From a virus (taxonomy: Duplodnaviria; Caudoviricetes): DNA of 64,000 nucleotides. The translations under genes were made by a program, and so were the position numbers. Under the pieces are notes generated by a model that saw nothing but the letters and a program-made list of their open reading frames with translations, did no database searches and had not been told where the DNA came from. The stretch lies in IMG/VR virus record IMGVR_UViG_3300028532_000002, positions 17,052-81,051 of that record; one strand, 5' to 3'. Numbering within the stretch: position 1 is the first letter of the stretch; each line of letters opens with the position of its first letter. Shown here one piece after another: positions 1,970-21,527 of the stretch.

Positions 1970-3703
1970 CTACGCGGCAAGCACGCCCTTCCACGCGACC
2001 CTGACATGCTGCTCAGGCAGAAGCTTGCGCCGACCCACATTCCCCACGGCCAGCATCCGCACCTCCTTCGCAAGCAGCCGCACAGCTGCCCGCCGCTGCG
2101 CTTGCGTCCACCCGGACCACACTCGACGGGCCGCCTGCGCAGACCCCGCAGCCAGCTCCACCAGAAGCGGATCCACCATCACCGGACGCGCCGCCACCCG
2201 CGCCGCCTCCAGCTGCATCAGCAACGGCTTCTCCGCGCGCTCCCCCATCTGCCAGGAAACCCGTCCTGCCTCTACCGCCTCATACAGGCCGGCAAGCTCA
2301 GCCTCCAGCTCCTCGACCTGCTTCTCGGCCGCCGTCAGCGCCTCCCGATTCTCCCGAGGGACCAGAGCAGCCCGCACATCCGGGTGCTCCAGCCGGTCGA
2401 ACAGGAACGACTGGAACGCCTCGTCGAGAACCGCCACCCGCCGCGACCCGTGAACCGGCGCCCCCTTCCCCAGCCCCACACACCGGTACAGACGGACGTT
2501 CTCCCGCTTGATCGGCACCGCGTACACCACGGCCCCACACTCATCGCACAGCGCGATCCCCGACAGCAGATCCATCGAGGATTGCTCCCGCGGGAGCCGT
2601 CCGTTGTTGTTCTCCTTCGGAGTGAGTGCCTCCTGGACCGCCTGCCACCGCGGCGGCGCCAGCACCGCCTGCCAGCCGCCCTGCTCGATCACCCGCCCGT
2701 TGTACCCGCGCTTGCCCTTCAGCGTGGGGGAGGACAGCAGCTGCTTCACCGTCTTGTGCGTCCACCCCTTCGACCGCACCTTCCGGCCGTTCTTCAGCTC
2801 CCGCGTCTCCCCCAGGAGTTGCCCACGTGGCGTCCGCACCCCACGCCGGTTCAAGTCCGCAGCGATCGCCGTGGGGGTGTGCTTGTCCTCAAGCAGCCGA
2901 TCCGCGATCTCCACGACGAGAGCCGCCCGCTGAGGGTGGATCACCTGCCGCACCAGCTCCCCAGTGTCCGGGTCGTAGTCCCGGGTGTACGCGTAGTGGG
3001 CGTACCCGTGCGGGCGCCCTTCCTCCGCGTGCGCATCCACGTCCCGCAGCACCCGCTTCCGAGTGGTGCCGGACTCCTGAATCACCTTGGCCATCTGCGT
3101 GTCGAGGTACCCCATGTCATCGGGGTCGTTGGTGTCCCAGAGTCGTTTGTCGAGTCCGATGTAGACATTGTTGTCCTGGCAGGCCAGCACCAGGTGCGCC
3201 CACACCATCCTGTCGCGGGTGCCTCGGGACAGCTCCCACAGCCACAGGATGTCTGCGCCACCTGCGCGAATCAGTGCCTCGACCTTGGGCCAGTCCTCCC
3301 GAACTCCGGCCGCCCACTCGCTAGCGGAGATGTCGTTGTCGGAGAACTCGGCCACCACATCCCAGTCGTGCTCCTCTGCCCGTCTGCGGCCGATCTTCAG
3401 CTGCTGACCTACCGACCGGCCCTGATGGGAGTCCTGAGACACGCGCGCGTAGATGACGACGCGCAGCCGCCGCGGGGGCATCCTCGCACCGGACATACCG
3501 GCCGCACCCAGGCGAGCCTCGTGTAGGGCAGTTACGCTGGCCCCGTGCCCGCCCGTGGCAGCCACCCTGTGCCCGGCAGGGCCGCGCCCGTTCGCCGTCG
3601 CACATATCGGGGAAGATCTATGGCCCCTCACCAGCCCAAACGTGCGCTCTGCGGTGCATGGCGCGTACTGAGTGTGGCGGAAGCTCGTCAAGACTGAGGG
3701 CAT
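1970..3703 (-). CDS. int: Large serine integrase (resolvase, recombinase and zinc-ribbon domains)
   Basis: VIYARVS catalytic Ser motif, WELSRGTR, recombinase domain, CDECG...YRC zinc ribbon, coiled coil; start may be 3481, 3496 or 3703. Confidence 0.95.
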   Translation of the reverse strand: MPSVLTSFRHTQYAPCTAERTFGLVRGHRSSPICATANGRGPAGHRVAATGGHGASVTALHEARLGAAGMSGARMPPRRLRVVIYARVSQDSHQGRSVGQQLKIGRRRAEEHDWDVVAEFSDNDISASEWAAGVREDWPKVEALIRAGGADILWLWELSRGTRDRMVWAHLVLACQDNNVYIGLDKRLWDTNDPDDMGYLDTQMAKVIQESGTTRKRVLRDVDAHAEEGRPHGYAHYAYTRDYDPDTGELVRQVIHPQRAALVVEIADRLLEDKHTPTAIAADLNRRGVRTPRGQLLGETRELKNGRKVRSKGWTHKTVKQLLSSPTLKGKRGYNGRVIEQGGWQAVLAPPRWQAVQEALTPKENNNGRLPREQSSMDLLSGIALCDECGAVVYAVPIKRENVRLYRCVGLGKGAPVHGSRRVAVLDEAFQSFLFDRLEHPDVRAALVPRENREALTAAEKQVEELEAELAGLYEAVEAGRVSWQMGERAEKPLLMQLEAARVAARPVMVDPLLVELAAGSAQAARRVWSGWTQAQRRAAVRLLAKEVRMLAVGNVGRRKLLPEQHVRVAWKGVLAA

Positions 3704-3733: not shown

Positions 3734-3765
3734 TAAGAGTTCTTCGCCTTGCTGAAGAACCCTTA
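3734..3765. other. Candidate attP-like inverted repeat
   Basis: TAAGAGTTCTTC-gccTTgct-GAAGAACCCTTA, 12-bp arms with 1 mismatch, centred on TT (3749-3750), in AT-rich DNA just upstream of int. Confidence 0.45.
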
Positions 3766-3852: not shown

Positions 3853-4047
3853 GTGATGACCGTACCCTCTGGCGTCCCCGTGGACGCCGCCGCCCTCGCG
3901 CTTGACGGGATTGTGACCCTCGCGCGAATGCTGACCCTCACCGAGTGGGCTGTGCTCGTCGCCTGCTTCTCCCTCCTCGCGGCGACGTTCTTCCTCGCGA
4001 CCTTCACCCGTCCGTTCTTCGTGGATCAGGCCCCCTCCTCCCGATAG
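3853..4047 (+). CDS. Small membrane protein, first gene of transfer operon
   Basis: AGGAG RBS; hydrophobic segment WAVLVACFSLLAATFFLATF. Confidence 0.6.
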   Translation: MMTVPSGVPVDAAALALDGIVTLARMLTLTEWAVLVACFSLLAATFFLATFTRPFFVDQAPSSR

Positions 4048-4124
4048 GCGTGCGGCCCCGCTGGTACCCGCCCCTGCACCCGTCGGGCGCCGGCGGGACT
4101 GTACGCCCACAACAAGGAGGACCC

Positions 4125-4256
4125 ATGGCCACCGTGATCATCTACCGCGTCGACGGCACCGAAGAGACCAAGACGGTTCGGGACGAGGACACCGCCCAGT
4201 ACGACGACCTGCCGTTCACCGACCCGAACGTGGTCCGCACCGAGATCCGATTCTGA
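4125..4256 (+). CDS. 43-aa acidic hypothetical protein
   Basis: AAGGAGG RBS before ATG 4125; MATVIIYRVDGTEETKTVRDED... Confidence 0.65.
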   Translation: MATVIIYRVDGTEETKTVRDEDTAQYDDLPFTDPNVVRTEIRF

Positions 4257-4453
4257 TGCCCGGCCGAGTCGCCGCTGGCGTCGCCATCAGCGCGGGAACG
4301 CACGCGCTGATCGACAGGCGTTGGCCGGTGCGCGAGTGGATGGACCGCGCCGGCGCCAGCCGATTCCGACAGCACGGCGGCGCGGCGCATGTCGACCAGG
4401 CCATGCATCACGTCGCCCTGTACGCCGCGGCCCTCGTGATCGCTGGCCGCTGA
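4256..4453 (+). CDS. DUF3307-like membrane protein, C-terminal half only
   Basis: THALIDRRWPVREWM...GGAAHVDQAMH matches the C-terminal part of a family I recall from actinomycete conjugative elements; TGATG coupling. Confidence 0.55.
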   Translation: MPGRVAAGVAISAGTHALIDRRWPVREWMDRAGASRFRQHGGAAHVDQAMHHVALYAAALVIAGR

Positions 4454-4505
4454 ACATCTGCCCGCCCCCTCGCCGGGGGCGGGCCCCACTCTCCTGGAGG
4501 ATCCG

Positions 4506-4751
4506 GTGTCCGACACCGCGACTGCCCGCAGTGTCGGGCCCCACACCCAGCTCGGTCCCGCCTGGACCCGGCTGCCGACCAACCCCGAGCGCTCCCGCGA
4601 GGCCGCCGACCGCGCCCTGGCCGAGTGCCAGGTCGACCCGACCACGGGCCTGTGGCCGTCGGGTCGGGGCCCCTCCCCGTCGTGGCAGCGGCTGATCAAG
4701 GAAGCCGCTGCGGCGGCTACGGCGGCCGACGAGGAGGAGATCGCAGCATGA
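4506..4751 (+). CDS. Hypothetical protein
   Basis: GGAGG RBS; stop overlaps next ATG. Confidence 0.55.
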   Translation: MSDTATARSVGPHTQLGPAWTRLPTNPERSREAADRALAECQVDPTTGLWPSGRGPSPSWQRLIKEAAAAATAADEEEIAA

Positions 4752-5194
4752 TCGAGTCCGCCAACATCGCCGCCAGCGTGGTGTTCCTGATCGTCGCGTT
4801 GGTCCTGTGGTTCGCGAAGACCTGGCCCAAGTTGCAGCTCATCCTGTTCATCCTCGCGGGTGCGGGCATGTCCGCCGGGGTCATCGGCGGCGGGATCCAG
4901 GACGGTGTCGTCGGTCTGATCGACGGCGTGAACCGGGGCATGGTCTGGGCGTTCGGGTCGCCCGTTCCCGGGCTGCTCGCCGTCCTCGCCGTCGTCATCA
5001 TCGTCCTGACCTGGATGGGCAAGGTGGGGTGGATGAAGAAGGCCGCCCGCTATGTGCCGGGCCTCACCGCGCTGGCCGCGCCGATCATCTGGCACCTGAC
5101 GGGCGGGATTTTCGCCCCCCTCGCTCTGATCGTCGGCAGCTTCGGTTCCATCATCGGCGCGATCATCTTCGGAACCATGGGCCTGACCTTCTAA
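4748..5194 (+). CDS. Multi-pass membrane protein (transfer/spread accessory)
   Basis: ATGA overlap; 4-5 hydrophobic helices; upstream of traB. Confidence 0.75.
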   Translation: MIESANIAASVVFLIVALVLWFAKTWPKLQLILFILAGAGMSAGVIGGGIQDGVVGLIDGVNRGMVWAFGSPVPGLLAVLAVVIIVLTWMGKVGWMKKAARYVPGLTALAAPIIWHLTGGIFAPLALIVGSFGSIIGAIIFGTMGLTF

Positions 5195-5211
5195 CCCCTC
5201 TCGGAGGAACC

Positions 5212-5499
5212 ATGCGTAGTACCCGTAACTCCCTGTTCGCCGTCGCCATCGGCGGAAGCATCGGCTTCCTGGCCGTCCGCCCCGACCTTGGCGCCGTTGG
5301 TGAAGTCCTGGACGCGCAGGCCGAGATCCTCGGACTCGAGATCGCCATGGTCGCCCCGGTCCTGTTTCTCCTCGCCGTGCTGACCGTCTTCCTCTTCGTC
5401 CTGGTCGAGATCGTGACCGGGGTCGTGGACCTCGTTACCTGGCTGATCCGGCGCCACCGCAACCGCAACGCCCCCGCGGAGGTGCACGGTGACCGCTGA
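5212..5499 (+). CDS. Two-helix membrane protein
   Basis: GGAGG RBS; hydrophobic segments; overlaps traB start. Confidence 0.7.
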   Translation: MRSTRNSLFAVAIGGSIGFLAVRPDLGAVGEVLDAQAEILGLEIAMVAPVLFLLAVLTVFLFVLVEIVTGVVDLVTWLIRRHRNRNAPAEVHGDR

Positions 5500-7573
5500 G
5501 CCGACCGACGCTCAGGTCATCCCGCTGCGCCCCCGGCGTGACGCCGAGGACCGGCCGATCCGTCCCGAGTGGACGGGCCGCGCCGGCCGTCGGCGTGCCG
5601 ACCGGCCGACCGTCGGGGCGTCGGGTGGACCCGCCGCCCGACCCGACACCCCGACCGACCACCCGACGCCCGACCCCGACCTGGAGAAGACGCAGGTCAT
5701 CAGGCGTCGGCGTCTACCGACCCTGCCGTCGGGGATCGGCGCGGCCACGCTCGCCGTGCCCGCCCGGTGCGCGTGCTGCGTGGGGCGCGGCATCAAGGCC
5801 GGCGGGGACCGGTTCGGCGAGTGGGCGTCCGAGAAGGGCCACAAGGCCGAGCGGGCGAAGAAGACCCTCTGGTGGGTCGTCGGCGGGGTGGCCGTCCTGT
5901 ACGTGACCGCTCCCTATGGCCTGCTGTGCCTGCTCACCGTCGGCGCCATCGCCGCGGTGGTCGCGGGCCGGAGGGTCCCTCCGGCGGTGTCGGGTGGGGC
6001 CGACGCTCCGGGCAGGACGTTCACCGGCCCGACCGCTCCCCGAGCCGACACGTCGGGCAACGAACCGACCATCCCGGCCGACCACCCGACGCCTCCCCCG
6101 CTGCCCGACTACACGGTGGCCGACCACCCGACCGACAGCACCGACGGCGCGAGCCGCTACTCCGGGCCCGCCATGACGGCCCGCATCACCCCGGCGACCC
6201 TGACCGCCGAAGCGCTCCCCACCCTGCTCGCCCAGGCCGGGATCATCCGACCGGCCGACCGACGGCTGGTCGTCGTCGAGGGAGAACCGACCCGACACCC
6301 GACCGGGGCGGTGTCGGCGTCCATGCTGCTGCCGCCCGGCGCCGACGCGGAGGAGGTCATCGCGCAGGCGCGGGTGGTCGCGTCCGCGCTGGGTGTCGGC
6401 AAGATGCTCGTCGGGCTGTCGGCCGACCCCGAGCACGCGGGTCGGCTGGAGCTGTATGTGGCCGACGCCGACCCGTTCACGGAGTCGGTTCCGTCGCCGT
6501 TGGTCGGTCGGGAGGAGGAGCTGTCGGTGTGGGAACGGCTGCCGGTCGGGTGGGACGTGCGTATGGACTCGGTTGCGCTGCGTCTGGTTGACGCGTCCAT
6601 GCTCATCGCCGGAGAGCCCCGCGCCGGGAAGAGCGTGGCGCTGTCGGAGATCATCGCCGCGTTCGCCTTGGACCCCTCTGCGGACCTGTTCCTGTTCGAT
6701 GGCAAGGGCGCTGGCGACCAGGCGGTGTGGAGGCCCGTCGCGCGGGTGTTCTGCAAGCGCAACGCCGAGATGCTGCGGGTCCACCTGGAGTGGGCGGTGG
6801 AGGAGATGGAGCGGCGGTTCGACGCCCTGGAGGAGGACGGGCGCGACACCAAGCTCACGCCGGAGATCGCCGAGGACCTGGGATTCAACGTGAGCTTGCT
6901 GGCCGTGGACGAGACCCGCTACTACATGTCGGATCCCACGCACGGCAAGGCGATCGCCCGCCTGGCGGTGGACCTCGCGGCTCGCGGCCCGGCGGCCGGG
7001 ATGATCTCGGCGTGGGCCACCCAGTACATGGACAAGACCGCCATCCCCCCACAGCTCAAGGGTGTGTGCTCGCTGCGGTGGGCGTTCCGCACCCCGGACG
7101 CGGTCGCGAGCAACCTCGTGTTGGGTCCAGGGGCGGTCGGCCGTGGCTACAACTCCTCCAGGATTCCCCGGGTGACGCACCGCGGCGTCAGCATTCTGGA
7201 CGCGGACGGCGACGAGCCTCAGATGATGCGCACCCACTACCTGACCCCGGCCGAGCTGCGCGAGATCGCGGACACCGCGACCGCGCTGCGCGGCGGCCCG
7301 GTGGAGGCCAGCGAGCCCGCGGCGGCGGATGCCGACGGGGCGCAGGTGCTGGAGCGGGCGCTGGCGGCGCTCGCCGACAACGAGGACCGAGTCGAGCGCG
7401 ACGACCTCGCCGAGCGGCTCGACGTGGACCCGGACGACCTCAGGGCCCGGCTCAGAACGGCCGGCGCGGGCGCCCCGCAGAGCATGCGGATCAACGGCGT
7501 TCCGAACGCGCGCGGCTGGTATCGGCGGGTCCTGGAGGAGGCGTTGGACGCTGTCACGGACGCGCCGCCGTGA
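5489..7573 (+). CDS. traB: TraB-type FtsK/SpoIIIE conjugal DNA translocase
   Basis: N-terminal TM pair, Walker A GEPRAGKS, FLFDGKG, Walker B LLAVDE, WATQY, C-terminal winged-helix-like ERDDLAERLDVDPDDLRARL. Confidence 0.9.
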   Translation: MTAEPTDAQVIPLRPRRDAEDRPIRPEWTGRAGRRRADRPTVGASGGPAARPDTPTDHPTPDPDLEKTQVIRRRRLPTLPSGIGAATLAVPARCACCVGRGIKAGGDRFGEWASEKGHKAERAKKTLWWVVGGVAVLYVTAPYGLLCLLTVGAIAAVVAGRRVPPAVSGGADAPGRTFTGPTAPRADTSGNEPTIPADHPTPPPLPDYTVADHPTDSTDGASRYSGPAMTARITPATLTAEALPTLLAQAGIIRPADRRLVVVEGEPTRHPTGAVSASMLLPPGADAEEVIAQARVVASALGVGKMLVGLSADPEHAGRLELYVADADPFTESVPSPLVGREEELSVWERLPVGWDVRMDSVALRLVDASMLIAGEPRAGKSVALSEIIAAFALDPSADLFLFDGKGAGDQAVWRPVARVFCKRNAEMLRVHLEWAVEEMERRFDALEEDGRDTKLTPEIAEDLGFNVSLLAVDETRYYMSDPTHGKAIARLAVDLAARGPAAGMISAWATQYMDKTAIPPQLKGVCSLRWAFRTPDAVASNLVLGPGAVGRGYNSSRIPRVTHRGVSILDADGDEPQMMRTHYLTPAELREIADTATALRGGPVEASEPAAADADGAQVLERALAALADNEDRVERDDLAERLDVDPDDLRARLRTAGAGAPQSMRINGVPNARGWYRRVLEEALDAVTDAPP

Positions 7574-7660
7574 CGTCACGCCCCGCGCGCGTGACAGGCG
7601 CGTGACACCAGGGCGTGACACCGATTCACCTGCATAAACACCCGTGTGGCGGGCGTGACA
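7552..7660 (+). repeat. clt-like cluster of 8-bp direct repeats (GCGTGACA)
   Basis: Exact copies at 7589, 7600, 7613 and 7653; variants CCGTGACG at 7569 and inverted TGTCACGG at 7552; immediately 3' of traB. Confidence 0.7.
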
Positions 7661-7802
7661 CTCACCCCGACCACACCCCAGAAAACGGCCCCCAGGAGGG
7701 GGTCCGGCGCCACCGCCACACCGCCACACCACACAGAAGCGGCCTGCCCCCTACCGGCCAAGGACCAGGGGCGGGCCTAGACCCCGAGAAGGAGCCTGAA
7801 CC

Positions 7803-9401
7803 ATGTTCGCAGACGCCATCACCGACCCGGCCGTCCAGGAGGCCGCGTCCGCCCCGTGGTGGGTGTGGGCGCTGACCGCCGTGGCCGTCCTGGGTGTGAC
7901 GGTGTGGGTGGTGCTCCGCCTGCACCAGACCGTCCGGGACGGGTGGAGCATCCGGGACGTTCTGCCCCGGGTGGTCGCCTCGGTGCGGTCCGCACGCCCC
8001 CGGCCGGCCGCCGCTGTGACGGTGCCCCGGCCGCGGCCCGCCGCCGCGCCCTCCGTGCCGCCGGTGCCGCCCGCGCCGGACCCCGTCGCCCCGGTTGAAC
8101 CCCCCCAGGCGGCCCCGGTCGAGGCTGCGGGACCGCCCACGGCGTCCCGCCTCAAGGGCCTCATCGTCGCCGCCAGCATCCCGTCCACGTTCTCTCTGGT
8201 GTGGACCGTGTGGACGTTCATCGACATGCTGACCGCGCCGCTGCCCGCCGCGCTGGCGGCCGGTCTGGTCCTGGACGTGGCGCTCGTCGCCGCGGTCGCG
8301 ATCGGATTCCTCGTCCCGGACAGGGCGACCCCCGCGAAGATCGCCGGGTGGATCATTGCGGCCCTGGCGGCGGTGATCGTGGGCTGGCACAGCATGACGC
8401 TGATGACGGTGCTCGTGCTGCTCGGCGCGATTCCGCTGGCGTCCAAGGCGCTGTGGCACCTGGCGCTCGACGCCTACCTGACGCAGCGGCGCCAGCTGGC
8501 GGCCTGGCATGCCCGACAGGAGGACGAGGCGCGGGCGGCGCGGGAGCGGGAGGCGGAGGAGGCCCGGCAGCGGAAGGAGGCCGAGCTCGCCGCGGAGGAG
8601 GAGCGCAAGCGCCGCGAGGAGGAGCTGTCCTCCGACCTGGACCACAAGCAGCAGGTGCTGATCGCCAAGAAGCAGAAGGAGGCCGAGTTCGCCCGGCGGA
8701 TGGCCGCTGCGGAGCTGGAGCTGGAGATGGCCAAGTCCGAGGCCGAGCACAAGGCGGCCCTGGCCAAGATCCGGCGTCTGGGTGAGCAGCAGCGGGCGAT
8801 GGACAAGGAGTCCGCGGAGGTCGAGAAGGGACGCCAGCAGCTGATCCGGGAGATCAAGGCGGGCGAGGGTATCGACTTCGCTGTCGAGGCCGCGCGCCCG
8901 GCGCGGCGTGCACTTGGCCGACCCGACGACCCGACCGACGGTCCCGACGGGCCCGGCGGCGGGAAGCCGGTGGAGGACGTGTGGTTCCCGGAGCCGACCG
9001 ACGTGCAGTGGGAGCGGCACGGGCAGCCGACGGCCCGGCCGACTGCCGACCCGATCCCGGTGGGACAGTCGGTCGACGCCCGACCGACCGCCGACCTGCC
9101 GCCGTTCCTGTGGCCCGACGCCGCCCCGACGCCCGACCCGACCCCGGCGCCGGGTCCGTCGGTGGACGTGCCGCGCGACGACGACGCTCTCCTGGAACGC
9201 GTGCACGCCTTGGTGATGTCCGGGGAGTTGCCGCTGGTGCTGACCCGTGAGCAGCGGGCCGCCGGGCAGGTCGTCCCGGACCGACCGGCCGCCGAATCGC
9301 TGCGCAACGCGGTCGGGTGCGGGCAGGTCCGATCGCGGAGGCTGCGTGACGCCTACCCCGACTACGCCACCGGCCGAGAGAACACGTGGGGTGCGGCGTA
9401 G
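7803..9401 (+). CDS. SpdB-like spread protein (membrane helices, coiled coil, Pro/Thr-rich tail)
   Basis: AAGGAG RBS; several TM helices, long E/K/R coiled coil, C-terminal HTH-like SLRNAVGCGQVRSRRLRD. Confidence 0.7.
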   Translation: MFADAITDPAVQEAASAPWWVWALTAVAVLGVTVWVVLRLHQTVRDGWSIRDVLPRVVASVRSARPRPAAAVTVPRPRPAAAPSVPPVPPAPDPVAPVEPPQAAPVEAAGPPTASRLKGLIVAASIPSTFSLVWTVWTFIDMLTAPLPAALAAGLVLDVALVAAVAIGFLVPDRATPAKIAGWIIAALAAVIVGWHSMTLMTVLVLLGAIPLASKALWHLALDAYLTQRRQLAAWHARQEDEARAAREREAEEARQRKEAELAAEEERKRREEELSSDLDHKQQVLIAKKQKEAEFARRMAAAELELEMAKSEAEHKAALAKIRRLGEQQRAMDKESAEVEKGRQQLIREIKAGEGIDFAVEAARPARRALGRPDDPTDGPDGPGGGKPVEDVWFPEPTDVQWERHGQPTARPTADPIPVGQSVDARPTADLPPFLWPDAAPTPDPTPAPGPSVDVPRDDDALLERVHALVMSGELPLVLTREQRAAGQVVPDRPAAESLRNAVGCGQVRSRRLRDAYPDYATGRENTWGAA

Positions 9402-9415
9402 CCCGCACCCGACCC

Positions 9416-9442
9416 GGGGGCGTCGGACTGTCCGACGCCCCC
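9416..9442. repeat. Perfect 13-bp inverted repeat in CCGAC-rich intergenic DNA
   Basis: GGGGGCGTCGGAC-T-GTCCGACGCCCCC. Confidence 0.75.
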
Positions 9443-9526
9443 GCTGTGATGGACCCGACCGACCGACAGGAGACCCGACGCCATGACCGACACCCGACCC
9501 CCGACCCCCCGACCGGGGTGGTCGCC

Positions 9527-10345
9527 ATGATGGGACGCTCCCACGCGGCGACCGGTGTACTCGCCGGAGTCGCCGTCGCGGCGGCGTTCGGCGCCCACGG
9601 TTCCGACTACTTCATCCTCGCGGCCGTCGGCGCGGGGGCCGCTCTCCTGCCCGACCTCGACGAGCCCGGCTCCACGGTCGGTCGGTCCCTCGGGGGGCTG
9701 ACGCAGGGCGTGTCCCGGTGGACCCGACGCCTGTCCTCCGCCGCGTTCCGGGCGACCGCGACCCGGTGGGACACCGGCCGCATCCGCCGCGAGGAGGACG
9801 GCGAGGGGCTGGCCCCCGGCGGGCACCGCCACCTCACCCACACCCTGCCCGCCGTCGCCGTCTACGGACTGCTCGCGTGGGGGACGGCGTCGCTCGGGCC
9901 GATCGGGCTGGGGGTGACCGTCGCCGCCATGGCCGCGCTCGGCCTCGGCCTGGTCCTGCGGGAGATCGGGGTGCACTCCACCCCGCGGCGGCGCGACGAC
10001 GAGTCGACCATGGCGTGGCGGGCCCGTGCGCGGATGGCCGGCCTCCAGACCGTGGGTGTGCTTGCCGTCGGCCTGGGGATGGGCGCGGTCGTGTTGGACG
10101 GGGGCGCCCCGTGGCTGGTCGGGGTGACCGTCGCGGTGGGGGCGCTGGTGCACATCGGCGGGGACTGGCTGACCCGGGCCGGCGTCCCGCTTGCGTGGCC
10201 GGTCCCGTACCGGGGGAAGAGGTGGCGGATGTTCCGGTCGCCGGTCGCGTTCCACACCGGGAAGTCGAAAGTGGAGGACGGCATCCGGTGGGCGAGCCTC
10301 GCGGGCGCCCCCATGCTCGCGCTCCTTGCCGAGGCACCTCTGTGA
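9527..10345 (+). CDS. YdjM-like membrane metal-dependent hydrolase
   Basis: MGRSHAATG, ALLPDLD, GHRHLTHTL, HIGGDWLT..GVPLAWP motifs. Confidence 0.85.
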   Translation: MMGRSHAATGVLAGVAVAAAFGAHGSDYFILAAVGAGAALLPDLDEPGSTVGRSLGGLTQGVSRWTRRLSSAAFRATATRWDTGRIRREEDGEGLAPGGHRHLTHTLPAVAVYGLLAWGTASLGPIGLGVTVAAMAALGLGLVLREIGVHSTPRRRDDESTMAWRARARMAGLQTVGVLAVGLGMGAVVLDGGAPWLVGVTVAVGALVHIGGDWLTRAGVPLAWPVPYRGKRWRMFRSPVAFHTGKSKVEDGIRWASLAGAPMLALLAEAPL

Positions 10346-10397: not shown

Positions 10398-10631
10398 ATG
10401 AACGACACCGCGATCCCGCTGCCCGCCGACGCGGAAGCACGATTCGCCGCGCTTACCGACGCGTGGCGGCCCCTCTTCGACGAACTCGCGTGCGGGCTCG
10501 AAGCCGCCGGGCGGGTCCTCCAGGAGTCCATGGAGACGTCCGCGCAGTACTGGGCGGTCGCCTCGATGATGCCCACCCTGAGCATGCGGCAGACCATGGT
10601 GCACGGCTACGTGCCCTGCGGGGGGGCGTGA
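10398..10631 (+). CDS. Hypothetical protein
   Basis: AGGAGG RBS before ATG 10398. Confidence 0.6.
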   Translation: MNDTAIPLPADAEARFAALTDAWRPLFDELACGLEAAGRVLQESMETSAQYWAVASMMPTLSMRQTMVHGYVPCGGA

Positions 10632-10864
10632 TGAGCTACCCGCTCCACGGCGGTCCCCTCGACGGGGCGACCGCCCCGGCCGGCGACATCGTCGACGGCC
10701 TGTACACCATCACCCGCTACGTGGGGGCTCCGCTCTCGGCGTTCACCGCCTCCCCCGTGCCGGACGAGGAGGCCAAGCCCGGCGGGCGCGAGACCGTGGT
10801 GTACGAGATCCAGACCTACAGGGGCCGCAAGCGGCTTGAGTACGCAGGAGGGAACACGTGGTGA
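10631..10864 (+). CDS. Hypothetical protein (GGPLDG motif)
   Basis: TGATG coupling; MSYPLHGGPLDG resembles VRLVGGPMDG in 15528..15749. Confidence 0.6.
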   Translation: MSYPLHGGPLDGATAPAGDIVDGLYTITRYVGAPLSAFTASPVPDEEAKPGGRETVVYEIQTYRGRKRLEYAGGNTW

Positions 10865-11340
10865 TGAACGTGCAGGCAGGCGAGGACGTGGACGTGCTTC
10901 ACACGCGCGTCTGTCAGGCGCTGGACGGCCACCGGAGGCGGCTGCACCCGCGCTTCATGGACGGCGCCCTACCGGCGAAGACCGCCGGGGAGCTGTGGGA
11001 GGCCATCGACAAGGCGCGCGCCGCGGCCGACCAGGCCCACGCCGACGGTGACCTCGCCGCGCTCCAGGTGCTGGCGAAACGGTGGCCGTCCCCGGCGCCC
11101 ACCCGGTCGGAGGCCCCCGAGGCATTCGACGCGCTCGCGGACCGGGCGGAGCACCTGATCATCAGGGTCGGCGAGTCCCGCGCCCGGGAGCAGCTGGAGG
11201 AGGAGCTGGGGAAGGCGGTCCAGGGCGCCCAGGAGGGGGCCGTGACTCTGGTGGCGGTCGCCGTGGAGGGCGCGATCCGGCAGGCCCGGGACGCGGTCAG
11301 GGACCGGCAGGACGTGTTCGCGAAGAGCAGCGAGGAGTAG
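10864..11340 (+). CDS. Hypothetical helical protein
   Basis: TGATG coupling; GC3-rich codons. Confidence 0.6.
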   Translation: MNVQAGEDVDVLHTRVCQALDGHRRRLHPRFMDGALPAKTAGELWEAIDKARAAADQAHADGDLAALQVLAKRWPSPAPTRSEAPEAFDALADRAEHLIIRVGESRAREQLEEELGKAVQGAQEGAVTLVAVAVEGAIRQARDAVRDRQDVFAKSSEE

Positions 11341-11342
11341 AC

Positions 11343-11612
11343 GTGAACGAGGACGAGCAGGGGGCCGCCGCGTACCGGCGCGACGATGGATGGACGCCCC
11401 GGGGCGAGGCCGGGCAGCGGACCCTCGCGGAGGCCACGGCCGCCGCCCTCGGGCACGAGATCGTCGAGGAGGACGACATGACCCCCCAGGACCGGCCGTG
11501 CGACGACGGCCACTTCCTGCCGAAGGACGAGGCCGACAAACGGTACGGGACCTGCACCAAGTGCGGGTGGTTCGTAGACCAGTGGGCCGACCAGGAAGAG
11601 GAAGGCCCCTGA
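11343..11612 (+). CDS. Small protein with Cys/His motif
   Basis: GTG 2 nt after upstream stop; PCDDGH...CTKCGW; followed by a terminator. Confidence 0.55.
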   Translation: MNEDEQGAAAYRRDDGWTPRGEAGQRTLAEATAAALGHEIVEEDDMTPQDRPCDDGHFLPKDEADKRYGTCTKCGWFVDQWADQEEEGP

Positions 11613-11645
11613 CCACAGGTCCCCCAGGATGCGGCCATAGCCGCT

Positions 11646-11678
11646 GGCCCTCACCTTCGGGTGGGGGCCTTCTGTGTT
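11646..11678 (+). terminator. Intrinsic terminator ending the transfer operon
   Basis: GGCCCTCACC-TTCG-GGTGGGGGCC then TTCTGTGTT. Confidence 0.7.
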
Positions 11679-12720: not shown

Positions 12721-12897
12721 CTACTGGACGCGCACCGCCGCGAGGAGAGCGGTCCACTCGGGGGCCGGGGCCTCCAGGTGGCCCAGTTCCCGGTTCTGGG
12801 TGTCCCGCATCAGCGTCTCGAAGCCCTCGCTGACCTCGACGCAGTTCCCCGATCCGCTGCTGTAGCTGGCTTTGTGCCACGTGCGGGTTTCATTCAT
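12721..12897 (-). CDS. DUF397 domain protein
   Basis: WHKASYSSGSGNCVEV...RDTQNRELGHL...EW signature. Confidence 0.92.
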   Translation of the reverse strand: MNETRTWHKASYSSGSGNCVEVSEGFETLMRDTQNRELGHLEAPAPEWTALLAAVRVQ

Positions 12898-13709
12898 CGT
12901 CCACCGACCTCTCGCAACATCGTGAGTGTCGCGGCTTCCGAAAGGGCCTCTCCTTGGAGAAGACCAAACGTGGTCGCGCACTCCTGGTATCGATCCATAT
13001 CGCTGATGACCGTCTCCCCGGTCATATACTCCGCCGATGCCACGGGGGGCTCGTCCGCGAAGGTGTACAGCCTGAAAGCGCCACCACTGCCGTAGTGACG
13101 CCCCGTGCTCCGGGGGATGATCTGAACCCTGACCTTACCGCTGTCCATGTCGTCGAGGACCCTCTGCACCTGATTTGTCAGCAGCTCAGGGCCGCGCGCT
13201 CCGACCTGCTGGTGGAGGACCGCTTCGCCGAGGAGGCACAGGACCAGGGGGCGGGGTTCTTCGTCCAGGAGACGCTGTCGCGTCATGCGGTTGTGCACGA
13301 GCTGATCGACGGCGGATGAGGGCATGCCGGGGAAGATGTCCTCGAAGACCGCGCGGGCGTAGTCCTCGGTCTGGAGCAGGCCGGGGATGACGAGTGGCTG
13401 GAAGTCGCGGATCTGGGTGGCCGCGGTCTCCAGCTCGGGCAGTTCCGCGAATCGGAACGGGGTCTGCACCTGGCGGCGGACCTTGGCCCATTCGTCGGCC
13501 AGGCGACCTCCGGCCTTGAGGTGCTCGTCGAGCTGGTTGATGTACTTCTCGTCGACCTTGCGGGATCCCGTCTCCCACGAGGAGTAGTAGCTGCCCACGA
13601 CGTCGAGTTTCTTGGCGACGTCGATTTGCCGCAGGTTCAGGTCCTCGCGGTGCTTCTTCATCTGCTTCCCGAAGTGCTTCCATGCCGGGTCGGTCGGGCG
13701 CTTCGACAT
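12894..13709 (-). CDS. XRE HTH + DUF5753 regulator (WhiJ/Scr1-like)
   Basis: N-terminal HTH, FQPLVIPGLLQTEDYARAVF, LGEAVLHQQVG; coupled to DUF397. Confidence 0.92.
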   Translation of the reverse strand: MSKRPTDPAWKHFGKQMKKHREDLNLRQIDVAKKLDVVGSYYSSWETGSRKVDEKYINQLDEHLKAGGRLADEWAKVRRQVQTPFRFAELPELETAATQIRDFQPLVIPGLLQTEDYARAVFEDIFPGMPSSAVDQLVHNRMTRQRLLDEEPRPLVLCLLGEAVLHQQVGARGPELLTNQVQRVLDDMDSGKVRVQIIPRSTGRHYGSGGAFRLYTFADEPPVASAEYMTGETVISDMDRYQECATTFGLLQGEALSEAATLTMLREVGGR

Positions 13710-14024
13710 TCACTCCTCCAAGATTTCGCTGAGATGGTCAGATTACACAGAAATTTCACCCCAAGGGAAGAGTCTTCTGTGAAATCTCCTATCGCGCGAC
13801 CGTTCCGTGAAGTCCCTTGATCTGGATACTTCACTACGGGATCGTGTGGGCACGGAGAAATATCTGTGGAATGCGGAGAAGCCACCCCATTGCGGATGAA
13901 TGCCTTGCCGTAGGACAAACGCTCCACACGGTGACACATCCGACCAAAAGAAAAGCCCCGACGGCCGAAGTCAGAGGCGGCCGTCGAGGCTCAGCGCCCC
14001 ACCCCGAAACACCCGAGGTGAGAC

Positions 14025-14477
14025 ATGCAGAAGTGTACCGCTCCACCCCTGCCACTTCCACGCCGACTGTGCGGAACCGACACCAGGTCGGGCATCCTGA
14101 TCGGCCCCGACCGCGCACACGTCCGGGTCGCCCGACAGTGGGCGTCTCAGGCCACCCGATCCCGGACCGGCCTGGCCGAGCCCGTCGCGGTCGTCGTGTC
14201 CGAGCTGGCCACGAACGCCCTGATGCACACCGCATCAGGGCTGGCCAACGGCACCGTCCGCATCGAGCTCGAACGCACGCCCCGCCACCTGGAACTGCGT
14301 GTCACTGACGGCGGGCCCCGCCCCGGCCTCGTGGGCACCCTGCCTGCGATCCCCGACCCGGCTCCACTTCGGGTCGGCGGCAACGGCCTGCGTCTGGTTG
14401 AGGCCATGTGTTCCTACTGGGACTGGTCGCAAGGGACCGGCGGAGCGATCACCGTGCGAGCCGTCTTCCACTGCTAG
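14025..14477 (+). CDS. HATPase_c ATP-binding protein (AbaA/anti-sigma-like)
   Basis: VVVSELATNALMH, LRVTDGG, GNGLRLVEAM; divergent from the XRE-DUF397 pair. Confidence 0.9.
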   Translation: MQKCTAPPLPLPRRLCGTDTRSGILIGPDRAHVRVARQWASQATRSRTGLAEPVAVVVSELATNALMHTASGLANGTVRIELERTPRHLELRVTDGGPRPGLVGTLPAIPDPAPLRVGGNGLRLVEAMCSYWDWSQGTGGAITVRAVFHC

Positions 14478-16272: not shown

Positions 16273-17874
16273 TCACCGCGCCTCGATGGCGGCCACCCAC
16301 GCCGCCAGCTCTGCGCGCGGGTCCACCTCTGCGGAGCGCGCCGACGCGGCCTTGGAAGCGACGTCCCACCCACCGTCCAGCAGCTCTCGCAGGGCCCGCT
16401 CCCAGCCGTCGATGTCGGCCCGGTCCACGAACACCCCGGCGGGGCCGAGCGCCTCGCGGAGCCCGATCGTGGGGTGCGCGATGGTGGGGATGCCGGACGC
16501 CGCGGCCTCGATGGCGACCATCCCGTAGGACTCCTCCGCCGAGGGCATGAGCAGGACGCGGGTGCGCGCCCACACGTCCCCCGCCATGTCGTCGGTGTGG
16601 TCCTGCCAGGTGACGTTGGGCAGGCCGTCGGGGCGGACCTGTTCGGTCTGCTGGTAGCCGCCCTCCACCGCGAGGAACTGCGCGTCGGGCATCCGGCGGG
16701 CCAGCTCGTAGAACACCCCGGCGCCCTTCGCGGGGATCGGGTTGACCAGGGTCACCATGTCGCCCGGCGCCGCACGGTGCTGCTCCGCCCACACGGGCGG
16801 GTGCACCACCAGGTGGGCGCCGCGGGCCGCCAGGCGCAGGCTCCGCGCGACGTGGTGGGTGTTCGCGACGAACAGGCTGGCGCCCGCGCGCACGTCCCGC
16901 AGGATCCACGGGGCCGCCGAGTGCAACACCTGGACGAGGCGGGCGCGCGCCTGCCGGGCGAGCTGGCGGGCGAGAGGTACGGACTTCAGGTGGGAAACGA
17001 CCACGTCGGCGTCCAGGCGTTCGGGCGTGCCGACGCGGACCGTGACCCCGTCCACGACCGCGTCGTCGGTCTCGTCGGTCGCCCACACCGTCACCTCGTG
17101 GCCGCGGTCGGCCAGGGCGCGCAGGAGCTCGTGGAGCATCAGCTCGGCCCCGGCCCGGTGGGCGGGCAGGTAGTAGTGGGCCAGGGCTGCGATACGGAGC
17201 GGGCGGTCGTCGGCGGCGGCGGCGACGAGGCGGCGCATGGCCGCCGGGTCGCGGCGGGCCCGCACGTACTCCTGGTACCGGGCCCGGTTGGTGCGGTACT
17301 GGGGGGAACGCACGTTCGCGGCGGGGGTGTGGTGCAGGTGGGTGATGGTGCCGTGGTGGCGCACGCCTTCCCCCAGCAGGACGTTGGAGGCGGTCCAGAA
17401 CGCGTCGTCCTCGAACCCCCAGCCGACGAAGTCCTCGTCCATGCCGCCGGCCTTCCACCAGGCGTCCGTCGAGATGACCCACACGCCGCCGATCGGCCGC
17501 CGGGACTCGTCGGCCACGGGCGCGTCCATGGGGTCGACACCCCGCGCGTACACGGCGAGGGTGCCCTCGGGGGTGAGGGCCCGGTACCGGGTGTAGGGCA
17601 GGTGCAGGCGCCCGTCGGCCGCGGCGCCCTCGATGGCGGCCCGGAGCGGCGCCTCCTCGGCGATGGTGTCGGCGTCGCACAGCACCACCACCCCCGACCC
17701 GGCCCGGCGCACCGCGGCGTTGCGCACCCGGGCCCGGGAGAACTCGCCGTCGACGTCGACCAGGAGGTGGTCGGCGTCGGGGAGCATCTCGCGGAGCCGC
17801 CACTGCACGTACTCGGCGTGGATCTCCCGGTCCAGCTGGCCGCCCCGGAACGGGACCGCGACGGTCACCTTCAC
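16273..17874 (-). CDS. Two-domain glycosyltransferase (GT2/GT7C-like + GT4-like)
   Basis: N-domain CDADT and GGMDEDFVGWGFED; C-domain HRAGAELMLHEL, NPIPAKG, EESYGMVAIEAAASGIP. Confidence 0.92.
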   Translation of the reverse strand: MKVTVAVPFRGGQLDREIHAEYVQWRLREMLPDADHLLVDVDGEFSRARVRNAAVRRAGSGVVVLCDADTIAEEAPLRAAIEGAAADGRLHLPYTRYRALTPEGTLAVYARGVDPMDAPVADESRRPIGGVWVISTDAWWKAGGMDEDFVGWGFEDDAFWTASNVLLGEGVRHHGTITHLHHTPAANVRSPQYRTNRARYQEYVRARRDPAAMRRLVAAAADDRPLRIAALAHYYLPAHRAGAELMLHELLRALADRGHEVTVWATDETDDAVVDGVTVRVGTPERLDADVVVSHLKSVPLARQLARQARARLVQVLHSAAPWILRDVRAGASLFVANTHHVARSLRLAARGAHLVVHPPVWAEQHRAAPGDMVTLVNPIPAKGAGVFYELARRMPDAQFLAVEGGYQQTEQVRPDGLPNVTWQDHTDDMAGDVWARTRVLLMPSAEESYGMVAIEAAASGIPTIAHPTIGLREALGPAGVFVDRADIDGWERALRELLDGGWDVASKAASARSAEVDPRAELAAWVAAIEAR

Positions 17875-18414
17875 CTACGTACCCCTCACTGCCTTCTCAG
17901 CGGACCACAGGTAGTAGCCCAGCACGTCGCCCTCGTGGGCCTCGACGAGGCCGGGCCCCAGCTCCGCGCGCATCTGCGGCCCGGTCCAGTGGTCCCGGTG
18001 GATCTCGAACCAGTTCCCGTTGACGTCCGCCTGGTCGTGATGGGCCAACGGGACGCTGACGAGGACGTGGTGCGCCCAGTCCCGCATGCGCGCGAGCACC
18101 GCCCGCGCCTCCGGCTGCGTCATGTGCTCCAGCACGTCCGCGAGGATGACCAGGTCCGGTTCGCGCAGGATGGTGTACGGGTCCAGGTGGCGGATGTCCG
18201 CGACGACGACGTGGTCGTAGGCCTCGAACAGCTGGAACTGCTGGATGTAGGGGGCCCACGCCTCCACCCCCACCCACCGGCACCCCGGGGTGGCGTCGCG
18301 GGCCAGCTGCACGTAGGTGCCCTCGCCGGGTCCCACGTCCACCACAGAGGCGGGCGCGAGAGACCTGATGATCTCCCGCGCCCACCCCTTTCCCTCACGG
18401 TCGGAGGTCGGCAC
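17875..18414 (-). CDS. Class I SAM-dependent methyltransferase
   Basis: VVDVGPGEGTY motif I, GVEAW, DLVILADVLEHM. Confidence 0.9.
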   Translation of the reverse strand: MPTSDREGKGWAREIIRSLAPASVVDVGPGEGTYVQLARDATPGCRWVGVEAWAPYIQQFQLFEAYDHVVVADIRHLDPYTILREPDLVILADVLEHMTQPEARAVLARMRDWAHHVLVSVPLAHHDQADVNGNWFEIHRDHWTGPQMRAELGPGLVEAHEGDVLGYYLWSAEKAVRGT

Positions 18415-18765
18415 CTACGCCGCCACCGGCCGGACGGGCGTGGGCGACACCTCGTGGCGGAGCACCAGGGTCATGATCGCGACGATCGCGCCGTTGATCG
18501 CGACCACCAGCTCGGGGCTCACCCCGATCCCGTAGTGGGTCAGCAGCGGGGCGAGCGTCAGTATGACGGCAGTGAACGCCGCGGGGGCGATGGGGCGGAC
18601 GTAGACCGCCTGCACCGCACCCAGGACCGCGCCGAGCGCCCCGACGATCAGCGGCACCGCGGCGTCGGTCAGGTACGGCAGGCCGACCGCGACGCCGACG
18701 AGGAGGACGGCCTGGACGGCGTTCAGGATGACGACCGGCTCGCGGCCGAACACGGGAGACTTCAT
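18415..18765 (-). CDS. Holin
   Basis: IFGREP-type N-terminus (VFGREPVVIL), four TM helices, in the lysis cassette. Confidence 0.75.
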   Translation of the reverse strand: MKSPVFGREPVVILNAVQAVLLVGVAVGLPYLTDAAVPLIVGALGAVLGAVQAVYVRPIAPAAFTAVILTLAPLLTHYGIGVSPELVVAINGAIVAIMTLVLRHEVSPTPVRPVAA

Positions 18766-18950
18766 GGGCTGGATTCCTGTTCTCGGGCTTCTCGCCCGTC
18801 AAGACTGCTGTGAGTGATGACCCAGCCGACCGATCCGTCTTTGCGTTTGATCGGTCGGGTGGTGGGGCCGCACATGCAGTCGGCCTCGTTGGTGTCGGTG
18901 TCGTGCTCGACCAGGTCATTGTCGGGGTAGACGTGCACGGTGTCGGACAC
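18762..18950 (-). CDS. Small hypothetical protein in lysis cassette
   Basis: VHVYPDNDLVEHDT...CMCGP...HSSLDGRE; ATGA overlap with holin. Confidence 0.7.
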   Translation of the reverse strand: MSDTVHVYPDNDLVEHDTDTNEADCMCGPTTRPIKRKDGSVGWVITHSSLDGREAREQESSP

Positions 18951-18956
18951 GGTGGC

Positions 18957-19943
18957 CTACTTCGGCCAGTAGAAGACGTCCGCGGTGGCCGACACGACCT
19001 TCGCGGCAGCGTCCCCGTACTGGACGACGCGGACCCGGACCCGGCGGCCCTTGGCGAGGTTGCCCTTCCAGCTGTAGGTGAAGTGGCCGTTGCCGCCGGC
19101 GTGCACGGGGCTGTCGATGGGCCGGTTGCGGGCGTACACCCACGACCCCTTGCCGTCCTGTTCGTACTCGGTGGCGCGCAGCTGCACCTCCGCACCGGCG
19201 GACAGGTCGGCGATGGTCACCCCCACGGAGAAGTCGTAGAGGGCGCCGTCCTTCTCGTTGACGCCCACCAGCGAGTACAGGCTGCCGGTGGAGGTGCCGC
19301 CGTGGTCGGCGTCGACCACGGTCTCGAACTCCAGGGAGGTCCACTCGCCGGGGTTGAGGGTCTGGGTCCGGTCCTTCTCGAACCGGCGGTGTCGGGGCAT
19401 GCCGTCTTCTCCCTTGTCGTTATCGGTGAAGCTCGTGGGCGGCTTCGCGAACGTGCCGTCCTCGACGAGCCGGTAGGCCCTGGCGCCGGGGCACGAGGTG
19501 GAGATGAAGTCGCGGTGGCCGAGCACCTTCCCGGAGATGGAGGTGTCCGGTTCCATCAGCCACTGGCGCAGCTGGCGGACGGCGTTGATCTGCTCCGGGG
19601 TGATCTCGTCGTTCGGGCCCGTGGCCAGGGTCACCGAGTAGTGCGAGGTGTTGCCGCCGGGCTGGGCGGCCTGCGCCCGGTACAGGCCGCGCCCCTCCAG
19701 GACGTAGCCGTGGCTGCACGCCATCCAGCTGTAGCCGATGTCCGCCCAGCCGCGGGACGGCCCGGTATGGAAGCGACGGGTGTTGCGCCAGTACGTGATG
19801 CAGGCCGAGTGATCCTTGTCGGCGAGGCCCTGGTCGGCGCTGTCGTAGTGGATGACCAGACCCGATCGGGGGTTGGCCCTCTCGGCGGGCGTCGACCCCC
19901 AGCCGAGGTCGGCGCGAGACACGTACTTCGTGGGTATGGGCAT
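18957..19943 (-). CDS. Endolysin, amidase_2 (PGRP-like) N-acetylmuramoyl-L-alanine amidase
   Basis: GLVIHY, WADIGYSW, EGRG, AQPGGN, GHRDFISTSCPG. Confidence 0.92.
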   Translation of the reverse strand: MPIPTKYVSRADLGWGSTPAERANPRSGLVIHYDSADQGLADKDHSACITYWRNTRRFHTGPSRGWADIGYSWMACSHGYVLEGRGLYRAQAAQPGGNTSHYSVTLATGPNDEITPEQINAVRQLRQWLMEPDTSISGKVLGHRDFISTSCPGARAYRLVEDGTFAKPPTSFTDNDKGEDGMPRHRRFEKDRTQTLNPGEWTSLEFETVVDADHGGTSTGSLYSLVGVNEKDGALYDFSVGVTIADLSAGAEVQLRATEYEQDGKGSWVYARNRPIDSPVHAGGNGHFTYSWKGNLAKGRRVRVRVVQYGDAAAKVVSATADVFYWPK

Positions 19944-19958
19944 GTGCTCCTCCGAGCG

Positions 19959-20429
19959 TCAGGACAGGGGCGGCAGCGGGGTGACGGTCTCCACCGGCCC
20001 CGGCGGGCCGGGCGGCCCGGGTGGGCCCTGCGGACCTTCGGGACCCTGAGGTCCGGCAGGCCCCGGGACACCGGGGGCGCCGGACGGACCGGCCGGGCCC
20101 GGGGCGCCATCGGCCCCGCTCTCCCCGTCGGCGCCGTCGCCTCCGGGGGGTCCGCTCGAACCGTCGTCGCCGTCCCTCCCGGAAGGTCCGGGGCGGCCGG
20201 GCGGGCCGGACGGGCCCGGCACAGGAATCGGGGTGGAGGTCGGCGGCGGCACCGGCGTTCCGCCGAGCTGCTCCACCTGCTGGGACAGCTCCTCGCGGTG
20301 CTGCTCGGCGTCGGACAGGCGCTGGGCCTGCTGCACGGCCGCGCCGATCAGGGCCGCCAGCACCCCGTAGAGGACGAGGAGAGCCAGGACGTACAGGATG
20401 CCGGCCGCACGTACTCGTCTCCGGGTCAT
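19959..20429 (-). CDS. Membrane-anchored collagen-like protein
   Basis: N-terminal TM, short coiled coil, long Gly-X-Y run. Confidence 0.8.
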
Positions 20430-20713
20430 CCCATCCCCCTCAGAAAGAGGGCAACCGCGATGCCCACGAAGATCGGTCCGATGAAGGAGGTGATCGCGGT
20501 GAGAAGGGCAGTCCGCGTCTGGGTCCGCTGCTCGGTGAGCTGGGCCTCCAGCCGGGCGATGCGGTCCAGATCAGCTTTCCGCTGCGCTTCGTACACCTCT
20601 TTCAAGACGTACATCGACAACCGCTGATCGAGCTGTCCGATGTCCCCGGACAGCTCTCGGTAGCCCGACTCGATCGCCCTCTTGAGCTCCCACATGGTGG
20701 GTTCGTCAGCCAC
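20426..20713 (-). CDS. Coiled-coil protein with C-terminal TM (lysis cassette)
   Basis: GTG 20713; C-terminal hydrophobic helix; ATGA overlap with next gene. Confidence 0.7.
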
Positions 20714-21475: not shown

Positions 21476-21479
21476 GGAC

Positions 21480-21520: not shown

Positions 21521-21527
21521 TCCAGGG

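Follow-up and report, generated by a model that had tools for sequence, protein, structure and literature searches.

Can an integrating tailed phage carry its own conjugation apparatus, and if so, does that apparatus belong to the phage or to a neighbouring element? This question is raised by 64,000 nucleotides of the virus record IMGVR_UViG_3300028532_000002 (the window, i.e., positions 17052-81051 of one 81,051-bp record), in which an operon of transfer genes built around a TraB translocase (the tra operon, or tra module) lies next to a serine integrase gene. Considering the sequence of the module, its conservation and its recurrence in other phages, we think it reasonably probable, by analogy with plasmids, that it is an accessory operon for a Streptomyces-type double-stranded DNA (dsDNA) transfer apparatus, mediating capsid-free transfer of the phage genome, and that these phages probably have in it a second, capsid-free way to spread. 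More tentatively, with a confidence that stops a little short of even, we propose an integrating tailed-phage lineage of mycelial actinomycetes with a dedicated TraB clade, in which the DNA-reading domain would co-evolve with a structured clt site, i.e., direct repeats, an invariant TGACCTGC core, and further repeats. To this proposed lineage we assign, besides the window phage and an unrelated 82.7-kb phage, an element of Nocardiopsis and the prophages of at least 12 species belonging to Streptosporangiaceae or Streptomyces.

The TraB protein is central to this reading. The initial annotation of the window had reported an intact TraB/FtsK translocase, and this was borne out by the family scan (Table 1) and by comparison with the TraB of plasmid pSVH1, to which the protein is 35% identical over 371 aa (E 1e-45). 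In the alignment of the two proteins, the Walker A (GEPRAGKS) and Walker B (LLAVDE) motifs can be seen. A profile built from TraB relatives matches FtsK at 7.5e-22, and the AlphaFold model of TraB matches FtsK motor structures with an E of ~1e-17 (Foldseek 7.6e-18). One hydrophobic segment at residues 141-159 (Kyte-Doolittle scan), modelled as a helix, is predicted to be an N-terminal membrane anchor, while residues 609-690 are predicted to form a winged helix of H-b-H-H-b-b-H topology (pLDDT ~90), the top PDB matches of which are nearly all winged-helix regulators (SmtB, Rex, CadC, MarR). This C-terminal domain is conserved throughout the clade of TraB proteins described below. NCBIfam holds no fitting TraB model, the TraB of pSVH1 itself scoring 41 bits against the cut-off of 800 for 'plasmid_TraB'.

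A clt-like repeat had also been noticed next to traB, and it holds up on inspection. Four exact copies of GCGTGACA (at 7589, 7600, 7613, and 7653) lie within 72 bp 3' of the traB stop; the 64-kb window has six in all. As a positive control, the same k-mer scan finds GACCCGG five times at the traB stop of pSVH1. In every relative inspected, the sequence after traB has a common layout, in which three to four direct copies of a word precede an invariant core (C)TGACCTGC that is followed by further copies. The core is ACCTGC in the window phage (7629-7634; site window 7625-7634), and it is also present just after the traB stop in the 82.7-kb phage (L002; ~12065-12075) and in the loci L044, L059, L045, L021, L046, and L054. 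We know of no description of such an invariant core for plasmid clt sites. As the repeat word itself, the window phage and the 82.7-kb phage have CGTGAC(A/G), and the main prophage clade has GGTCTACC; CCTAGCA or CTAGCG is found in two loci, which also share a distinct winged-helix variant. Across these loci, the repeat word co-varies with the predicted winged-helix variant of TraB, which matches the prediction of the TraB/TRS (TraB recognition sequence) model.

TraB is encoded together with a series of small and membrane proteins. The tra operon consists of 12 co-oriented genes (3856-11670) and diverges from the integrase gene across an AT-rich gap; the co-orientation given in the initial annotation thus stands, and its end at 10345 does not, as the operon continues to an intrinsic terminator (Table 1). 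The at least four membrane or spread-like genes claimed for the operon are all found, YdjM being one of them. The best conserved of the small partners is the 148-aa Spd-like protein, with 80% identity to its ortholog in the 82.7-kb phage and 62% in the Nocardiopsis locus. The C-terminus of the 532-aa SpdB2-like protein is 51% identical to a 544-aa protein of the 82.7-kb phage, and this ortholog matches DUF2637 at 2.7e-7, passing the cut-off; the DUF2637 search gave no match for the 532-aa protein itself. In pFP11, a DUF2637 protein is encoded beside TraB. Orthologs of YdjM are likewise encoded downstream of TraB in the 82.7-kb phage and in Nocardiopsis. The tra operon is adjoined by a WhiJ-like trio, the DUF397/DUF5753 pair of which is matched in the 82.7-kb phage by tblastx. 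XRE-DUF5753 genes, often with DUF6879 or DUF397, flank TraB in L002, L041, and L042, and they may be the regulator of the module where GntR is missing; a GntR repressor is encoded by most of the relatives, including the 82.7-kb phage and many of the prophages. As a side observation, ARAGORN calls a 90-nt tRNA-Gln inside the 148-aa gene (4884-4973), which is almost certainly a false positive.

Regarding the second part of the question, several lines of evidence support that the tra block is built into the phage and is not an adjacent actinomycete integrative and conjugative element (AICE), as far as can be judged from sequence: it lies on one circular molecule with a single integrase, it recurs in an unrelated phage and in prophage relatives, and its TraB falls in a clade of phage-linked proteins. 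The two ends of the record (1-132 and 80920-81051; window 63869-64000) share 127 identical bases, the last 127 being equal to bases 6-132, preceded by a 5-base tip carrying two mismatches, and an overlap of this kind is typical of a circular assembly. The element was also assembled independently with MEGAHIT (ENA), at a length of 81,060 bp, from which a unit genome of ~80.9 kb would follow for both (81,060-141 = 81,051-132 = 80,919 bp). The phage genome is thus circular or circularly permuted; in IMG/VR, the record is classed as linear, with a CheckV completeness of 92%. The same junctions are carried by the two independent assemblies and by further fragments.

The window is phage throughout, based on gene calling by GC content at third codon positions (GC3) followed by family scans. 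One genome holds TerL, portal, capsid, tape measure, tail, lysis, integrase, and early recombination/replication genes, and by this gene content, in which all gene classes tested for are present, the element is a temperate siphovirus-type tailed phage. This agrees with the serine integrase neighbour and the full siphovirus late region described earlier for the locus. The integrase is the only one: PF00589 has no match in the whole 81-kb record and PF07508 just one. The second integrase and the GntR gene that had been found missing near the module are absent from the entire record too, as is Prim-Pol, and ParA (AAA_31) and ParB (ParB_N) have no matches in it either. A search for DUF3631 (RepAM) in the record came back empty, as did the control searches. 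No direct repeats flanking the module were found in the window. The GC hairpin after the 65-aa gene (4460-4488) recurs at 25140-25168 in the phage island, the stretch 4460-4484 matching 25140-25164 with one mismatch, where shuffled sequences gave an expectation of 0; the hairpin described in the initial annotation is thus confirmed.

Further support comes from the recurrence of the module. Among 5.8 billion proteins, the closest TraB is encoded on the 82.7-kb contig, with 63% identity by BLASTP and 68% over the aligned columns. This contig shares with the window phage the 43-aa open reading frame, the 148-aa and 95-aa proteins, TraB, the C-terminus of the SpdB2-like protein, YdjM, and the DUF397/DUF5753 pair only. 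Its early and integration genes (ERF, RusA, WhiB, a DnaC-like gene, a tyrosine integrase, and a replication initiator) and its virion genes (portal, phrog_776; a MuF/protease fusion; major head protein, phrog_777; tail fibre) identify it, by gene content, as a different, unrelated temperate phage backbone. Its operon is headed by a divergent GNAT-GntR pair in an arrangement identical to that of pSVH1. A third copy was found in Nocardiopsis sp. NRRL B-16309, where the 148-aa protein is conserved as given above, YdjM is 56% identical, and the module, located at one edge of an integrated element, has host genes on one side and small phage-like genes on the other.

The TraBs next in similarity (45-52% identity) are encoded by prophages. 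In Streptomyces sp. NPDC050535, host catabolic genes are followed by small genes and TraB, XRE-DUF5753, endolysin, and tail genes, while a 248-kb metagenome contig carries tail genes, holin, endolysin, small genes and TraB, DUF6879 and XRE-DUF5753, and host genes; in neither of the two contexts was a Rep found between host, tra, and lysis/tail genes. In three IMG/VR proviruses, the tyrosine integrase and TraB are located at opposite ends, with TerL between them in two, and once circularised they would have the same topology as the window phage. We also compared 20 species-representative loci, nearly all from Streptosporangiaceae, by marker-based tblastn with markers verified against PHROGs. 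In 12 of the 20, TraB is followed at a distance of 2-8 kb by an endolysin, minor-tail, or tape-measure homolog in convergent orientation, and just one of the 20 has a Prim-Pol match. The initial annotation had suggested testing the linkage of TraB to TerL/capsid homologues across actinomycete genomes; in these loci, TraB is linked to lysis and tail genes. This lysis/tail-side position is shared by prophages of at least 12 species, with neither a Rep nor a second integrase close by. All hosts of the TraB clade are mycelial actinomycetes. In a maximum-likelihood tree, 17 phage-linked TraBs and nine of unknown context form one clade with moderate support (SH-aLRT 90), and six plasmid TraBs fall outside it. 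The TraBs of the window phage and the 82.7-kb phage group together (100) as sister to a Streptosporangiaceae clade (99). The deep order of the tree is uncertain because two plasmid rows and L062 are on long branches. In the same tree, the TraB of L024 (IMGVR_UViG_2918501144_000002, a provirus of 75 kb) is nearly identical to that of pSVH1, and L024 probably represents an element of plasmid or AICE type located within or next to a predicted provirus.

The two phage copies of the module are sufficiently diverged to examine selection. Between the window phage and the 82.7-kb phage, synonymous divergence (dS) is ~0.5, and the ratio of nonsynonymous to synonymous divergence (dN/dS) is 0.30 for the TraB motor domain and 0.39 for the 148-aa protein, figures that are conservative given the strong codon bias. 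By these ratios, the module is under purifying selection, which is evidence for its being functional.

Based on these observations, we propose the following scheme. By analogy with pSVH1 (Thoma et al. 2015, PMC4447253), TraB would form a membrane-anchored hexameric FtsK-like motor, the C-terminal winged helix of which would dock on the GCGTGACA repeats (clt) 3' of its own gene. As clt is on the phage beside traB, the phage genome would serve as substrate in cis. It would be pumped across the envelope or septal cross-walls, with assistance from the small membrane proteins, the SpdB2-like protein, and perhaps YdjM, and the excised or replicating phage genome would move as naked dsDNA to neighbouring compartments or to mated hyphae. 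In the recipient, the serine integrase would insert the genome via the candidate attP beside the operon. For DNA binding, translocation, the timing of expression, and transfer between rather than within mycelia, we infer the behaviour of the phage module from that of the plasmid systems.

Several observations weigh against this scheme. The PDB matches of the predicted winged helix are weak (E >= 0.065), and so is the match of the 532-aa protein to the SpdB2 of pSVH1 (E 0.036). GntR (PF00392), which normally tames traB in plasmids, has no match in the 81-kb record, and CTGTCCCCCCA, the repeated operator word of the phage, does not occur in the tra operon. The prophage of NPDC050535 shows no att direct repeats (chance 13-16-mers only) and no tRNA. 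Because the source is a metagenome, virion DNA, a replicative form, and an episome are all possible origins of the circle. In addition, a substrate of 81 kb exceeds typical AICEs.

The initial annotation had envisaged a dual spread of the excised circle, by virion and by hyphal conjugation. An equally good reading of the locus is that the apparatus is used after virion infection or induction and spreads phage DNA through the cross-walls of one mycelium only; as the exclusive role of the module we hold this to be unlikely, while giving it more weight than any other alternative. It fits the mycelial habit of all clade hosts and the make-up of the operon, much of which consists of Spd-like membrane proteins, and SpdB2 homologues on phiC31 and VWB have been proposed to help phage DNA spread (PMC4447253). 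On the other hand, the same TraB-clt pair performs both jobs in plasmids, so that sequence cannot separate use within a mycelium from use between mycelia. Besides, phages of the phiC31 type manage with a Spd homologue alone and with no TraB-like gene, as judged from 50,697 phage records, in which tblastn of TraB (1e-5) gave one weak match only, to a Bacillus phage.

We regard as improbable that the module has been co-opted as a moron, serving host chromosome mobilisation, the exclusion of incoming DNA or plasmids, or another benefit to the lysogen. It occupies the classic position of a moron, flanked by attP on one side and the lysis end on the other and provided with a promoter region and a terminator of its own, and the WhiJ-like trio that flanks it consists of developmental regulators. 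However, the cis-site has been kept on the phage and co-varies with the predicted DNA-binding domain of TraB, which points to the phage genome as the substrate, and PADLOC returned only weak generic ATPase matches on the module, which gives no support for a defence role; a defence system was among the readings rejected.

An inert AICE or plasmid remnant, a separate nested or adjacent element, or an assembly chimera is very improbable, since the movement of the module between unrelated phage backbones, the plasmid nature of its nearest experimentally studied relatives, and a GC content slightly above that of its flanks stand against open reading frames that are all intact at the dS given above with dN/dS well below 1, the lack of flanking direct repeats, of a second integrase, and of Prim-Pol, junctions identical in two independent assemblies and further fragments, and a lysis-gene-side position that is constant across many species. 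An AICE beside a prophage was rejected on the single integrase, the missing Prim-Pol and flanking repeats, and the recurrence of the module with phage genes, and a chimera on the junctions shared by the two assemblies. A phage-plasmid of the partition type was also rejected, as neither ParA nor ParB is present and a serine integrase is.

The remaining features of the phage are summarised in Table 1. We propose that the inverted repeat upstream of the integrase gene may serve as attP; its arms, TAAGAGTTCTTC and GAAGAACCCTTA, are 92% complementary, and it begins no more than a short way from int, lying 31 nt upstream of its start within the AT-rich stretch that separates int from the tra operon. 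The early minus-strand genes after the integrase include RecE/YqaJ, RecT, RusA, a DnaC-like loader, a C5 methylase, and SSB, and a gp5.9-like gene and a LexA-type repressor are found on the minus strand past the contig junction. In this early region, we observed a T7 gp5.9-like RecBCD inhibitor domain (62116-62436), a DUF4326 protein (60733-61344), and a LexA-type DNA-binding repressor of 211 aa (57022-57657). The late region is broken by a plus-strand island at ~23.1-30.8 kb. This island is driven by four promoter/operator cassettes with direct and inverted CTGTCCCCCCA half-sites (window 23115-28342, and 63087), the word having 12 matches against 3.5 expected; no such cassette is located near the tra operon.

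Table 1. Coordinates of the features discussed, given as window positions, with strand and the basis of each assignment.
Feature	Position	Strand	Basis or remarks
Serine integrase	1970..3703	-	Resolvase, Recombinase, and Zn ribbon domains; phrog_95 integrase, 233 bits
Candidate attP	3734..3765		12-bp imperfect inverted repeat, 8-nt spacer
63-aa membrane protein, first gene of the tra operon	3856..4047	+	GC3 gene call; transmembrane segment predicted
43-aa open reading frame	4125..4256	+	Called in the ENA assembly; 65-69% identical in L002 (tblastx)
65-aa protein	4256..4453	+	phrog_2470 membrane protein, E 2.6e-8
81-aa protein	4506..4751	+	Called in the ENA assembly; ATGA coupling to the 148-aa gene
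148-aa Spd-like protein	4748..5194	+	4-5 transmembrane segments predicted
95-aa membrane protein	5212..5499	+	Overlaps the traB start; ~53% tblastx identity to the counterpart region of L002
TraB, 694 aa, FtsK/SpoIIIE-type dsDNA translocase	5489..7573	+	PF01580, 29.8 bits against a cut-off of 24
clt-like site	7550..7660		Four GCGTGACA copies plus degenerate or inverted copies around the ACCTGC core
532-aa SpdB2-like membrane protein	7803..9401	+	N-terminal transmembrane cluster, charged coiled region, Pro-rich linker, conserved C-terminus
YdjM-family membrane-bound metal-dependent hydrolase	9527..10345	+	PF04307, E 6.7e-23; phrog_20744
Three distal operon genes (133, 160, and ~90 aa) and terminator	10463..11669	+	No family matches
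Intrinsic terminator of the tra operon	11646..11669		Ends the operon
WhiJ-like trio	12730..14477		DUF397-like (-), XRE-DUF5753 (-), HATPase_c_2 anti-sigma-like (+)
Late region	16273..55537	-	MuF-like, TerL, portal, scaffold, capsid, tape measure, tail proteins, collagen-like fibre, amidase (lysin), methyltransferase, glycosyltransferase

TerL shares 75% identity with its counterpart in Thermobifida phage P1312 and 57% with the one in Streptomyces phage Dagobah, and the late region gave no match to phages by megablast; a host among the Streptosporangiales is more likely than Streptomyces. The match of the major head protein (window 46215-47583) spans just profile positions 16-218 of 385, and an overlapping 186-aa open reading frame in another frame after it is 41% identical to a protein of Thermobifida phage P1312. 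The capsid gene may thus have a frameshift, either real or due to an assembly error. Between portal and scaffold (48735-49961), a GT2-type glycosyltransferase is fused to a SAP domain, and a two-domain glycosyltransferase as well as a methyltransferase are encoded at the end of the lysis cassette (16273-18414), which suggests glycosylation of the virion or the cell wall.

If the tra module works as a dsDNA transfer apparatus, it would allow capsid-free passage between hyphae, bypassing receptor-based resistance and extracellular barriers, and the line between a prophage and an integrative conjugative element would be blurred. Prophages would then join the agents of TraB-driven gene flow, and possibly of chromosome mobilisation, in antibiotic-producing actinomycetes. 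Should the proposed lineage be real, conjugation-like transmission would be a normal second route for its members, free of receptors and packaging limits. The idea is directly testable because related prophages are present in culturable strains, among them Streptomyces sp. NPDC050535, Nonomuraea spiralis JCM 3286, Planomonospora venezuelensis CECT 3303, and Nocardiopsis sp. NRRL B-16309. The co-varying winged helices and repeat words constitute a natural series in which the recognition of the site by TraB could be studied.

In the searchable literature, we found neither an account of an integrating tailed phage that carries a complete TraB-clt-Spd module nor one of a TraB clade specific to phages, and an integrating phage lineage with its own TraB clade thus appears to be undescribed there. 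Among known phages, FtsK/SpoIIIE-like proteins of the lytic Streptomyces phages Geonosis, Jaresh, and AndoPrime have been read as replication or development factors (PMC11536984, PMC13587820). They have in common with the TraB of the window phage an FtsK-family ATPase domain encoded by a phage, whereas they are beyond the reach of tblastn at 1e-5 and no clt or Spd context has been reported for them. SpdB2 homologues are present on the temperate phages phiC31 and VWB, where they were suggested to aid the spread of phage DNA (Thoma et al. 2015, PMC4447253), and the window phage resembles these two in that a plasmid-type spread protein (weakly SpdB2-like here) is encoded on an integrating phage, while differing in its TraB and clt, neither of which has been reported for them.

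AICEs such as pSAM2, SLP1, and pMEA300 share with the window phage an integrase together with a TraB-type translocase, chromosomal integration, and an expected transfer as an excised dsDNA circle. In the survey of Ghinet et al. 2011, an AICE was defined by the presence of Int, Rep, and Tra, and FtsK matches inside prophages were set aside (PMC3218068), so that surveys of this kind currently throw out prophage matches such as those described here. The window phage differs from this compact Int-Rep-Tra organisation in that Int and Tra are present, no Prim-Pol was found, and a full virion is encoded. According to PMC2440964, the best-characterised AICEs span 10.9-17.3 kb, as compared to 81 kb here.

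The conjugative Streptomyces plasmid-phage pZL12 (phage ZL12; Zhong et al. 2010, J Bacteriol 192:3747), as described in articles citing it (PMC3583192, PMC4487206), also combines virion genes and a conjugal transfer locus on one replicon, a comparison that is with its description only. By these accounts, both pZL12 and pSLE1, a relative of it, are plasmids that are autonomous and encode ParA/ParB, in contrast to the window phage, which lacks ParA/ParB and carries a serine integrase. TraB is missing from two Streptomyces phage-plasmids whose TerL is related, and four Streptomyces phage-plasmids of ~100 kb have no FtsK-domain gene above the threshold.

Finally, the module is comparable to the transfer regions of pSVH1, pSG5, pFP11, and pIJ101, with which it shares an FtsK-type TraB that bears Walker A/B motifs, is anchored in the membrane by its N-terminal part, and ends in a winged helix (anchor and winged helix being predicted here). 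As in Streptomyces plasmids, 8-bp direct repeats are found at the 3' end of traB, together with translationally coupled small membrane proteins and a DUF2637/SpdB2-type protein, to which the 532-aa protein is a weakly similar candidate counterpart. In contrast to these plasmids, the TraB of the window phage falls in a separate clade at 35% identity, the SpdB2-like gene lies downstream of traB instead of upstream, YdjM is added, the GntR repressor and the plasmid Rep are lacking, and the carrier is an 81-kb tailed phage.

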